Shown: positions 42,845-55,509, counted from the first letter of the stretch. The stretch: DNA of 64,000 nucleotides from Escherichia coli (GCF_048403405.1 NZ_CP183129.1), one strand, 5' to 3'. Notes: a model not told the origin generated them from the sequence alone. Made by a program: numbers and translations.

Positions 42845-44047
42845 ATGTTAAAAGTGGAAATGTTATCCACCGGGGATGAAGTGTTACACGGGCAAATCGT
42901 TGACACTAACGCTGCCTGGCTGGCCGATTTTTTCTTTCATCAGGGGTTGCCTTTAACTCGCCGCAATACGGTGGGGGATAACCTTGATGACTTAGTGACC
43001 ATTCTTCGCGAACGTAGTCAGCACGCCGATGTGCTGATCGTTAACGGCGGGCTGGGGCCGACCAGTGATGATTTAAGCGCACTCGCCGCTGCGACAGCAA
43101 AAGGTGAAGGCCTGGTGTTGCATGAAGCCTGGCTCAAAGAGATGGAACGCTATTTCCACGAACGTGGACGAGTAATGGCACCGAGCAACCGTAAACAAGC
43201 GGAGCTACCTGCCAGTGCTGAATTTATCAATAACCCGGTAGGCACCGCCTGTGGTTTTGCCGTGCAGCTTAATCGTTGCCTGATGTTCTTTACCCCCGGC
43301 GTACCGTCAGAATTTAAGGTGATGGTCGAGCACGAAATCCTGCCGCGCCTGCGCGAGCGTTTTTCTTTACCACAGCCGCCGGTTTGTCTGCGTTTAACTA
43401 CCTTTGGTCGTTCGGAAAGCGATCTGGCACAAAGCCTGGACACTCTACAACTGCCGCCGGGCGTAACAATGGGCTATCGCTCCTCAATGCCTATCATCGA
43501 ACTGAAACTCACCGGACCGGCAAGCGAGCAACAGGCGATGGAAAAACTGTGGCTGGACGTTAAACGTGTTGCCGGACAGAGCGTGATTTTCGAAGGCATC
43601 GAAGGACTGCCCGCGCAGATCAGTCGCGAATTGCAAAACCGCCAGTTCAGCCTGACGTTGAGCGAGCAATTCACCGGCGGTTTATTGGCTTTGCAACTTT
43701 CTCGCGCAGGTGCTCCATTGCTGGCGTGTGAAGTGGTTCCTTCACAGGAGGAAACCCTGGCGCAAACGGCGCACTGGATTACAGAACGGCGGGCCAACCA
43801 TTTTGCCGGGCTGGCACTGGCTGTTTCTGGTTTCGAGAACGAACATCTCAACTTTGCGCTAGCCACGCCAGACGGCACTTTCGCTCTGCGTGTGCGTTTC
43901 AGCACTACGCGCTACAGCCTGGCTATCCGTCAGGAAGTGTGCGCAATGATGGCACTGAATATGCTGCGCCGTTGGTTAAACGGCCAGGACATCGCCAGTG
44001 AGCATGGCTGGATTGAGGTTGTTGAGTCCATGACTTTATCTGTCTGA
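42845..44047 (+). CDS. yfaY: CinA-family protein YfaY (MoCF-biosynthesis-like domain)
   Basis: 400-aa ORF matching recalled YfaY. Confidence 0.88.
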   Translation: MLKVEMLSTGDEVLHGQIVDTNAAWLADFFFHQGLPLTRRNTVGDNLDDLVTILRERSQHADVLIVNGGLGPTSDDLSALAAATAKGEGLVLHEAWLKEMERYFHERGRVMAPSNRKQAELPASAEFINNPVGTACGFAVQLNRCLMFFTPGVPSEFKVMVEHEILPRLRERFSLPQPPVCLRLTTFGRSESDLAQSLDTLQLPPGVTMGYRSSMPIIELKLTGPASEQQAMEKLWLDVKRVAGQSVIFEGIEGLPAQISRELQNRQFSLTLSEQFTGGLLALQLSRAGAPLLACEVVPSQEETLAQTAHWITERRANHFAGLALAVSGFENEHLNFALATPDGTFALRVRFSTTRYSLAIRQEVCAMMALNMLRRWLNGQDIASEHGWIEVVESMTLSV

Positions 44048-49813: not shown

Positions 49814-53878
<4,065 letters not shown>

Positions 53879-54023
53879 TGTTATCCCTCTGAAGTTCGTT
53901 TTTTACCATTTAGCCATAGTAAAAACATGAATTGTTTGATTTCGCGCATATTCGCTCATAATTCGAAAGTGAAACGTGATTTCATGCGTCATTCTGAACA
54001 TTTCAACCATCGTATTTAATAAT

Positions 54024-54039
54024 GTGTGCGGTAATTCAC
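54024..54039. promoter_or_regulatory. CRP-binding-site-like palindrome in the divergent glpA / glpT control region
   Basis: tgtgcggtaattcaca matches TGTGA-N6-TCACA at 9 of 10 positions; the glpACB-glpTQ intergenic region is known to be cAMP-CRP and GlpR controlled. Confidence 0.5.
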
Positions 54040-54150
54040 ATTTAATTTATGAATGTTTTCTTAACATCGCGGCAACTCAAGAAACGGCAGGTTCTCCCAC
54101 TGAATCAGGCTGTTAATCATAAATAAGACCACGGGCCACGGAGGCTATCA

Positions 54151-55509
54151 ATGTTGAGTATTTTTAAACCAGCGCCACATAAAGCGCGCTTACCTGCCGC
54201 GGAGATCGATCCGACTTATCGTCGATTGCGCTGGCAAATTTTCCTGGGGATATTCTTTGGTTATGCTGCTTACTATTTGGTTCGTAAGAACTTTGCACTC
54301 GCTATGCCTTATCTGGTCGAGCAGGGCTTCTCACGCGGTGATTTAGGTTTTGCCCTTTCGGGGATCTCGATTGCTTATGGATTTTCGAAATTCATCATGG
54401 GCTCGGTGTCGGATCGCTCGAATCCGCGCGTTTTCCTGCCCGCAGGTTTGATTCTGGCGGCGGCAGTGATGTTGTTTATGGGCTTTGTGCCGTGGGCGAC
54501 GTCGAGCATCGCGGTGATGTTTGTACTGTTGTTCCTCTGCGGTTGGTTCCAGGGGATGGGATGGCCGCCGTGCGGTCGTACTATGGTGCACTGGTGGTCG
54601 CAGAAAGAACGTGGCGGCATTGTGTCAGTATGGAACTGTGCGCACAACGTCGGTGGTGGTATTCCGCCGCTGCTGTTCCTGCTGGGGATGGCCTGGTTCA
54701 ATGACTGGCACGCCGCGCTCTATATGCCCGCATTCTGCGCCATTCTGGTGGCACTGTTCGCCTTTGCGATGATGCGCGATACCCCGCAATCCTGTGGCCT
54801 GCCGCCGATCGAAGAGTACAAAAATGATTATCCGGACGACTATAACGAAAAAGCGGAACAGGAGCTGACTGCGAAGCAAATCTTCATGCAGTACGTGCTG
54901 CCGAACAAACTGCTGTGGTACATCGCTATCGCCAACGTGTTCGTTTATCTGCTGCGTTACGGCATCCTCGACTGGTCACCGACTTATCTGAAAGAGGTGA
55001 AACACTTCGCGCTGGATAAATCCTCCTGGGCCTACTTCTTCTATGAGTATGCGGGCATTCCGGGCACCCTGCTGTGCGGCTGGATGTCGGATAAAGTCTT
55101 CCGTGGCAACCGTGGGGCCACCGGCGTCTTCTTTATGACACTGGTAACCATCGCGACTATCGTTTACTGGATGAACCCGGCAGGTAACCCAACCGTAGAT
55201 ATGATTTGTATGATTGTTATCGGCTTCCTGATTTACGGCCCTGTGATGCTGATCGGTCTGCATGCGCTGGAACTGGCACCGAAAAAAGCGGCAGGTACGG
55301 CAGCGGGCTTTACCGGGCTGTTTGGTTACCTGGGCGGTTCGGTGGCGGCGAGCGCGATTGTTGGCTACACCGTGGACTTCTTCGGCTGGGATGGCGGCTT
55401 TATGGTAATGATTGGCGGCAGCATTCTCGCGGTTATCTTGTTGATTGTTGTGATGATTGGCGAAAAACGTCGCCATCAGGAATTACTGCAAAAACGCAAC
55501 GGAGGCTAA
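54151..55509 (+). CDS. glpT: Glycerol-3-phosphate:phosphate antiporter GlpT (MFS)
   Basis: 452-aa ORF matching recalled GlpT. Confidence 0.97.

Follow-up and report, generated by a model that had tools for sequence, protein, structure and literature searches.

How does a single spacer of 272 bases serve the two genes that diverge from it, glpA and glpT, and does the version carried by this Escherichia coli chromosome work as the one in K-12 does? The spacer lies within a stretch of 64,000 nucleotides (NZ_CP183129.1), here called the window, all of which was scanned. A sequence-only reading had named it the glpACB/glpTQ divergent control region, and that identification was borne out by NCBIfam equivalogs, by the annotation of 5419 of 5426 genomes and by collinearity with K-12. 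GlpA scored 1107.9 bits against equivalog NF008313 (cut-off 425) and GlpT 976.4 bits against NF008433 (cut-off 748); indeed GlpA, GlpB, GlpC, GlpT and GlpQ all exceeded their NCBIfam equivalog cut-offs by a wide margin. The 5419 complete E. coli genomes are those in which an 851-base stretch spanning the spacer (53600..54450) was found, every time on the chromosome, and in all of them the genes flanking the spacer are annotated as glpA and glpT. Strain VCSW7 is identical over the 851 bases and has the K-12-like gene order nuo, men, arn, rhm, glpCBA, glpTQ, nrdAB. The annotation of the same strain gives elaD (window 22738..23948) as a frameshifted pseudogene.

When aligned with the spacer of K-12 MG1655, which is also 272 bases long, 263 of the 272 positions were identical, with nine substitutions and no insertions or deletions. 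One of them, at 53994, falls within the GlpR operator at -41..-60 of glpA, and six (54004..54008 and 54012) lie between the CRP-type sites. The remaining two are at 54032, inside the spacer of the strong CRP site, and at 54097, in a part of the glpT leader that belongs to an IHF-binding region. At least two spacer alleles are common among the 5419 E. coli genomes: 1386 match the window at 99% identity or more, and 4032 fall between 95 and 99%. By the 99% limit, roughly one complete E. coli genome in four has the window allele, and the K-12 type is 96.7% identical to it. We conclude, with a probability of roughly 0.93, that the spacer is an allele-level orthologue of the K-12 glpTQ-glpACB control region and that it most likely works in the same way. 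Such a feature is already published and its binding sites are ordinary ones; for this control region PMC4280137 gives 21 binding sites for five transcription factors in RegulonDB 8.5. The features discussed below are collected in Table 1.

Table 1. Features of the glpA-glpT spacer and its surroundings, in window coordinates. Fractions are matches to the 20-base GlpR consensus; published operator and IHF positions are those quoted in PMC3050690.
Feature	Position	Strand	Basis or remark
glpA coding sequence	52250..53878	-	542-aa ORF; anaerobic glycerol-3-phosphate dehydrogenase subunit A; glpB and glpC downstream
glpACB/glpTQ divergent control region	53879..54150		272 bases; spacer between divergent glpA and glpT
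Predicted glpA ribosome-binding site, GAGGGA	53884..53889	-	GAGG conserved in most aligned species
GlpR operator, +52..+33 of glpA, GAAGTTCGTTTTTTACCATT	53891..53910		14/20; published position (PMC3050690)
ATTTAGCCA block, +27..+35 of glpA leader	53908..53916		Most conserved non-coding block of the spacer
GlpR operator, +12..-8 of glpA, ATTGTTTGATTTCGCGCATA	53931..53950		15/20; published position (PMC3050690)
Predicted glpA transcription start	53942	-	64-nt leader; template registration
Candidate glpA -10, GAATAT/GATTAT	53948..53953	-	Conserved hexamer
GlpR operator, -9..-28 of glpA, TTCGCTCATAATTCGAAAGT	53951..53970		10/20; published position (PMC3050690)
Weak CRP/FNR-type site, AAACGTGATTTCATGCGTCATT	53972..53993, centre 53982.5		Consensus, conservation, within FNR footprint
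GlpR operator, -41..-60 of glpA, CATGCGTCATTCTGAACATT	53983..54002		12/20; published position (PMC3050690)
Strong CRP site, AATGTGTGCGGTAATTCACATT	54021..54042, core 54025..54040, centre 54032.5		Consensus score, conservation, published footprint
Predicted glpT -10 hexamer, TAACAT	54062..54067	+	Right distance from CRP site for a class II promoter
Predicted glpT transcription start	54072..54074	+	77-nt leader
IHF-binding region, +15..+51 of glpT	54088..54124		Yang et al. 1997 position (PMC3050690)
GCCACGGAGGC, with glpT ribosome-binding site GGAGG (54140..54144)	54135..54145	+	Almost invariant in aligned species
glpT coding sequence	54151..55509	+	452-aa ORF; glycerol-3-phosphate:phosphate antiporter; glpQ next
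Second IHF-binding region, +193..+227 of glpT	54266..54300		Within glpT coding sequence; mapped position (PMC3050690)

The segment 54003..54023 holds the majority of the nine window-versus-K-12 substitutions. Genera other than Escherichia retain there a block, TTGTCATA-N4/5-TGTAACAAT, from which the Escherichia alleles depart, as they also do from one another: 54004..54008 reads CAACC in the window and TGTAA in K-12, and other E. coli and E. albertii are different again. One E. coli among the GTDB representatives (L004) carries a different sequence from the CRP site to the glpT -10.

CRP and GlpR sites were scored by counts of matches to a consensus, with dinucleotide shuffles as the control; this procedure stands in for a matrix scan. 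Conservation was followed in an alignment of the window spacer with 32 other Enterobacteriaceae spacers fetched via GlpT (33 sequences in all). The CRP consensus used was TGTGA-N6-TCACA with A/T-rich flanks. The strong CRP site, scored at 54022..54043, matched 13 of the 16 informative positions of the 22-base consensus, which made it the top-scoring place in 64 kb, and a score of 13/16 had a P of about 0.006 in dinucleotide shuffles of the spacer. Its core palindrome, TGTGCGGTAATTCACA, matched nine of the ten core bases. A 10-base core with at most one mismatch is not rare in the 64 kb, where three were observed and 1.9 expected. The core TGTGC-N6-TCACA is retained in 25 of the 33 Enterobacteriaceae sequences, and the six bases between its halves vary freely. 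The near-consensus CRP palindrome of the sequence-only reading was therefore real and the best in the window, although it had been placed one base to the left, at 54024..54039.

Published work points the same way. In EHEC, Kurabayashi et al. obtained a cAMP-CRP DNase I footprint on AATGTGTGCGGCAATTCACATT, -30..-52 of glpT (PMC5352689), and the sole difference between the footprinted sequence and the window is a C to T change at 54032, in the spacer of the site. A CRP matrix scan combined with cross-species evidence ranked the glpT/glpA spacer 2-3 genome-wide (PMC1794230). On its sequence, the palindrome at 54025..54040 is a real CRP site. The site (54023..54042) also gives 14/20 to the GlpR consensus in the window, 13/20 in K-12 and 13-15/20 in many genera, a situation reminiscent of glpFK, where GlpR operators overlap CRP sites; the four GlpR positions that PMC3050690 quotes do not include it.

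CRP activates from characteristic positions, class II sites being centred near -41.5 and class I sites near -61.5, -72.5 or -92.5. With the predicted starts at 53942 (glpA) and 54074 (glpT), the strong site would have its centre at -90.5 with respect to glpA and at -41.5 with respect to glpT. A second, weaker CRP/FNR-type site lies 50 bases away, at -40.5 of glpA and -91.5 of glpT, so that all four distances match activating positions. We take the weaker site to be the second tandem CRP site of Larson 1992. It matches the CRP consensus at 10 of 16 positions, a score that by itself is indistinguishable from chance; its left half, CGTGA or TGTGA, is conserved in the 33-sequence alignment, and in Klebsiella, Raoultella and Buttiauxella the site becomes a better CRP match of 7-8/10. 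Read as an FNR-type site at -40.5 of glpA (GTGAT-TTCA-TGCGT, 53976..53989), it scores 5/10. CRP footprinting showed a single protected region, and the weak site falls within the 70-base footprint of FNR(D154A) (PMC5352689).

GlpR is a repressor of the DeoR family that is released by glycerol-3-phosphate. For its operator we used the 20-base palindrome WATGTTCGWTAWCGAACATW, which we take to be the consensus. The consensus performed as expected at two K-12 control regions: it matched 20/20 just upstream of glpD, together with a tandem 14/20 neighbour, and it gave tandem matches of 14-15/20 upstream of glpF (glpFK). A strict scan allowing up to three mismatches found no GlpR match in the 64-kb window, and the four operators of Table 1 carry 5-10 mismatches. 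At a threshold of 14/20 there were 17 matches in the 64 kb, three of them within the spacer (53891, 53931 and 54023), and at least three such matches per spacer occurred with P = 0.0014 in shuffles. Three positions in the 64 kb reached at least 15/20, with 53931..53950 among them. The other two 15/20 matches are at 22004..22023 (TGTGTAAGATAACGAACTGT) and 43828..43847 (TGGTTTCGAGAACGAACATC); they lie within the yfbL and yfaY coding sequences and were set aside as probably due to chance. The best tandem GlpR pair in the 64 kb is 53931..53970 and the best four-unit array is 53891..53970. The operators that begin at 53891, 53931 and 53951 are in exact 20-base register, and that at 53983 is offset by 52 bases from 53931.

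Larson et al. 1992 placed repressor sites of glpACB at -41..-60, -9..-28, +12..-8 and +52..+33, as quoted in PMC3050690. We took these four positions as a fixed template, moved the supposed start of glpA along the 64 kb and summed the consensus scores. The sum had a unique maximum of 51 with the start at 53942; all other placements gave 42 or less except for one of 45, and this runner-up is a 40-base alias in the same region. The start at 53942 is also the only registration in the 64 kb that puts all four operator positions on scan peaks, and it yields the canonical CRP spacings of -40.5, -41.5, -90.5 and -91.5. In the comparison with footprinted K-12 operators that had been proposed, the four positions quoted coincide with the 20-mers of Table 1. 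Because the registration is unique, both GlpR-like sequences offered as examples by the sequence-only reading fall on published operators, at least as the source quotes them: ATGCGTCATTCTGAACATTT, which is at 53984..54003 rather than 53977..53997, lies on the operator at -41..-60, and ATGAATTGTTTGATTTCGCGCAT, whose coordinates (53927..53949) were right, lies on that at +12..-8. They had been described as half-sites; they are GlpR sites, but according to the quoted positions each belongs to a full 20-base operator. The operators at 53891..53910 and 53951..53970, the weak CRP/FNR site, the FNR-like motif and the IHF region are additions to that reading, as is the overlap of the operator at -41..-60 with the weak CRP/FNR site.

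In the alignment, the operator at 53891..53910 scores 14-16/20 at the same place in most Enterobacteriaceae. That at 53931..53950 covers the glpA start and part of the -10 region; 29 of the 33 sequences reach 15-17/20 there. At 53951..53970 the TTCG..CA and CGAA parts are conserved, and a score of 10/20 is not above chance when taken without other evidence. Further operators, such as repression from multiple operators at a distance would imply, were not located inside glpA, where the cross-species mean of the consensus score was at most 11.5/20 at every position.

For the operator at -41..-60 there is another reading, namely that 53984..54003 is a mere flank of the weak CRP/FNR site and resembles an operator by chance. 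The window scores 12/20 there (13/20 in K-12, the difference being that 53994 is C in the window and T in K-12), and this does not stand out from chance because a shuffled spacer should hold about three 12/20 matches. In the 33-sequence alignment the orthologous stretches score between 8 and 15, with a mean of 11.7, and the stretch does overlap the site centred at 53982.5. We nevertheless consider this reading unlikely. PMC3050690 gives a repressor site of glpACB at exactly -41..-60, and the scan peaks locally at 53983..54002, in register with the remaining three operators. Escherichia, Citrobacter and several further genera conserve the right half, TGAACAT, and GlpR operators overlap CRP sites at glpFK as well (PMC5493358). 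The backing for an operator at 53983..54002 is its exact coincidence with the operator position that the source quotes.

A second alternative concerns the operator at 53931..53950, which also contains the FNR-like sequence TTGAT-TTCG-CGCAT (53936..53949). Kurabayashi et al. proposed this sequence as an FNR motif at -123..-136 of glpT and found that FNR(D154A) protects a 70-base region that includes it (PMC5352689); moreover, glpTQ and glpABC are given as FNR-activated in PMC3688515, where an FNR ChIP peak at glpT/glpA is given for the hns/stpA double mutant only. It could therefore be argued that 53931..53950 is primarily an FNR site for anaerobic activation and that its likeness to a GlpR operator is secondary. 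We scanned with TTGAT-N4-ATCAA as the FNR consensus, for which an activating site is expected near -41.5. The motif matches 7 of the 10 core bases, as against 15 of the 20 bases of the GlpR consensus, and FNR matches with three mismatches are very common across the window, near chance frequency. The motif is centred at about +0.5 of glpA, where a bound protein would occlude the promoter rather than activate it; the site at -40.5 would be better suited to an FNR-type activation of glpA. A GlpR site is reported at +12..-8 in PMC3050690.

Conservation also bears on this choice. All eight bases of TGTTTGAT are conserved, and the CG within what would be the FNR spacer is invariant across genera, although a free FNR spacer should vary. 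The two bases before the CG do vary (TT, AT, AA or TG), as W positions 11-12 of the GlpR consensus permit. Because the CG (consensus positions 13-14) is fixed and the preceding two bases are W-like, the pattern of conservation favours GlpR binding, rather than FNR binding with a free spacer, as the main constraint on 53931..53950. A primarily FNR site is hence very improbable here. GlpR and FNR may nonetheless compete at 53931..53950, so that the site would have dual occupancy.

That all of the motif matches are chance occurrences in an AT-rich spacer with no regulatory function in this strain is effectively refuted: the simple CRP core (one mismatch) does occur at chance frequency and IHF- and FNR-like matches are common, but the extended CRP score and the GlpR clustering are significant against composition-matched shuffles, the bases around the site cores drift over more than 30 genera in which the cores themselves are conserved, and footprints have been published on near-identical sequence (PMC5352689, PMC3050690).

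IHF sites were scanned with the consensus WATCAANNNNTTR. One-mismatch matches occurred at chance frequency in the 64 kb (59 observed, 51.5 expected). One of these, AATCAGGCTGTTA at 54103..54115, lies within the IHF-binding region at +15..+51 of glpT. In the region at +193..+227 the best IHF-like match, at 54270..54282, has two mismatches. A one-mismatch IHF-like sequence on the minus strand, AATCAAACAATTC at 53929..53941, overlaps the operator at 53931..53950 and is no better than chance.

The transcription start of glpA is placed by the template registration described above. The starts of glpA and glpT are reportedly 132 bases apart in the account of Larson 1992, and this separation together with the -41.5 spacing of the strong CRP site would put the glpT start at 54074. 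The numbering used in PMC5352689 (CRP at -30..-52, FNR motif at -123..-136) puts it at 54072-54073. The predicted glpT -10 reads TAACAT, TACCAT or TACAAT in nearly all aligned species. A generic promoter scan detected neither of the two real promoters, as is to be expected of promoters that depend on CRP as activator; the only pair that it gave, TGAACA/AATAAT (53995..54023), was rejected as a promoter, being no better than chance.

The ATTTAGCCA block has a majority base in at least 85% of the 27 non-redundant Enterobacteriaceae sequences at each of its positions. Most of it falls in the 20 bases that separate the operators at +33..+52 and -8..+12. The block matched none of the CRP, GlpR, FNR and IHF consensus sequences and was not found in the glpD or glpFK control regions. 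RNAalifold gave no consensus structure for the glpA leader across 26 species, and Rfam gave no credible RNA family in 53400..54600. A tentative idea, to which we give little credence, is that the block is the site of an additional, undescribed regulator of glpACB that acts at the DNA or RNA level and is conserved across the Enterobacteriaceae. In many genera a CCACA-N6/7-TGTGG palindrome (53911..53930) adjoins the block.

Taken together, the sites suggest the following mode of action. Two back-to-back promoters would start 132 bases apart, on the minus strand for glpA (about 53942) and on the plus strand for glpT (about 54074). The strong CRP site at -41.5 would replace the -35 element of glpT (class II activation), and cAMP-CRP would activate both glpT and glpA, each from a class II position. 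GlpR bound to the four operators would cover the weak CRP/FNR site as well as the start and the -10 region of glpA, and would therefore block RNA polymerase and compete with the activator at glpA. That glpT is repressed at a distance is already established; in E. coli no strong operator lies at the glpT promoter, and glpT would be repressed from the glpA-side operators, with IHF bound in the leader at 54088..54124. Glycerol-3-phosphate would release GlpR from the operators, as it does in K-12 (PMC4790336). Protein binding at these sites comes from the literature, and the window allele most likely behaves as the K-12 allele does. The expected regulatory layout of the sequence-only reading is supported.

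As a discovery the region carries little weight, since it is a textbook multi-operator control region. In practice it is relevant because glpT expression sets the uptake of fosfomycin (PMC4790336, PMC5352689), and E. coli lineages may owe small differences in glpT expression to natural alleles of the CRP-site spacer and of the operator at -41..-60, that of the window among them. On the comparative map, the CRP cores and the glpA-proximal operator stand out as ancient and the missing glpT-side operator as Escherichia-specific.

This map draws on 16 Enterobacterales that are more distant and share the divergent gene order, in which a GlpR-like operator (AATGTTTGATAAGGAACAAA) near glpA scores 15-17/20; Yersinia, Serratia, Pectobacterium, Providencia and others are among these genera. 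Like E. coli, the distant Enterobacterales (Dickeya and Edwardsiella included) combine the divergent order and the glpA-proximal operator with a strong CRP-type palindrome, but their CRP-type site starts 64 bases from the start of the operator, as against 44 and 94 bases in E. coli. In most of them, but not in E. coli, there is on the glpT side a second operator of 14-16/20, at a distance of exactly 200 bases from the glpA-proximal one. Its absence from E. coli fits with the repression of glpT at a distance. The operator at 200 bases, for example GACGCTCGTTATGGAACATA, was seen in Yersinia, Serratia, Pectobacterium, Dickeya and Brenneria. In Kosakonia, Enterobacter sp. Bisph1 and one soil MAG a 13-16/20 match lies instead in the glpT leader, and the position of the strong CRP site is degenerate.

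Among the known control regions of the regulon, that of glpD is served by the same repressor through the same consensus, with its 20/20 operator just upstream and a weaker tandem neighbour. The glpA-side operators (10-15/20) are much weaker, and none equals the glpD operator. The glpFK control region resembles the spacer in having tandem 20-base GlpR operators and dual control by cAMP-CRP and glycerol-3-phosphate. There, GlpR operators O1-O4 overlap two CRP sites (PMC5493358), an arrangement of repressor site upon CRP site that recurs here at 53983..54002. However, glpFK has a single promoter, whereas glpA and glpT have two divergent promoters that share sites, and unlike glpFK, glpT lacks a strong promoter-proximal operator. 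The closest system is the K-12 glpTQ-glpACB region itself (Larson, Cantwell & van Loo-Bhattacharya 1992; Yang, Gerhardt & Larson 1997), which has the same genes and the same length, and in which the four operators, the two CRP-type sites, the -10 regions and the ribosome-binding sites occupy positions identical to those in the window, with only the nine substitutions setting the window allele apart.
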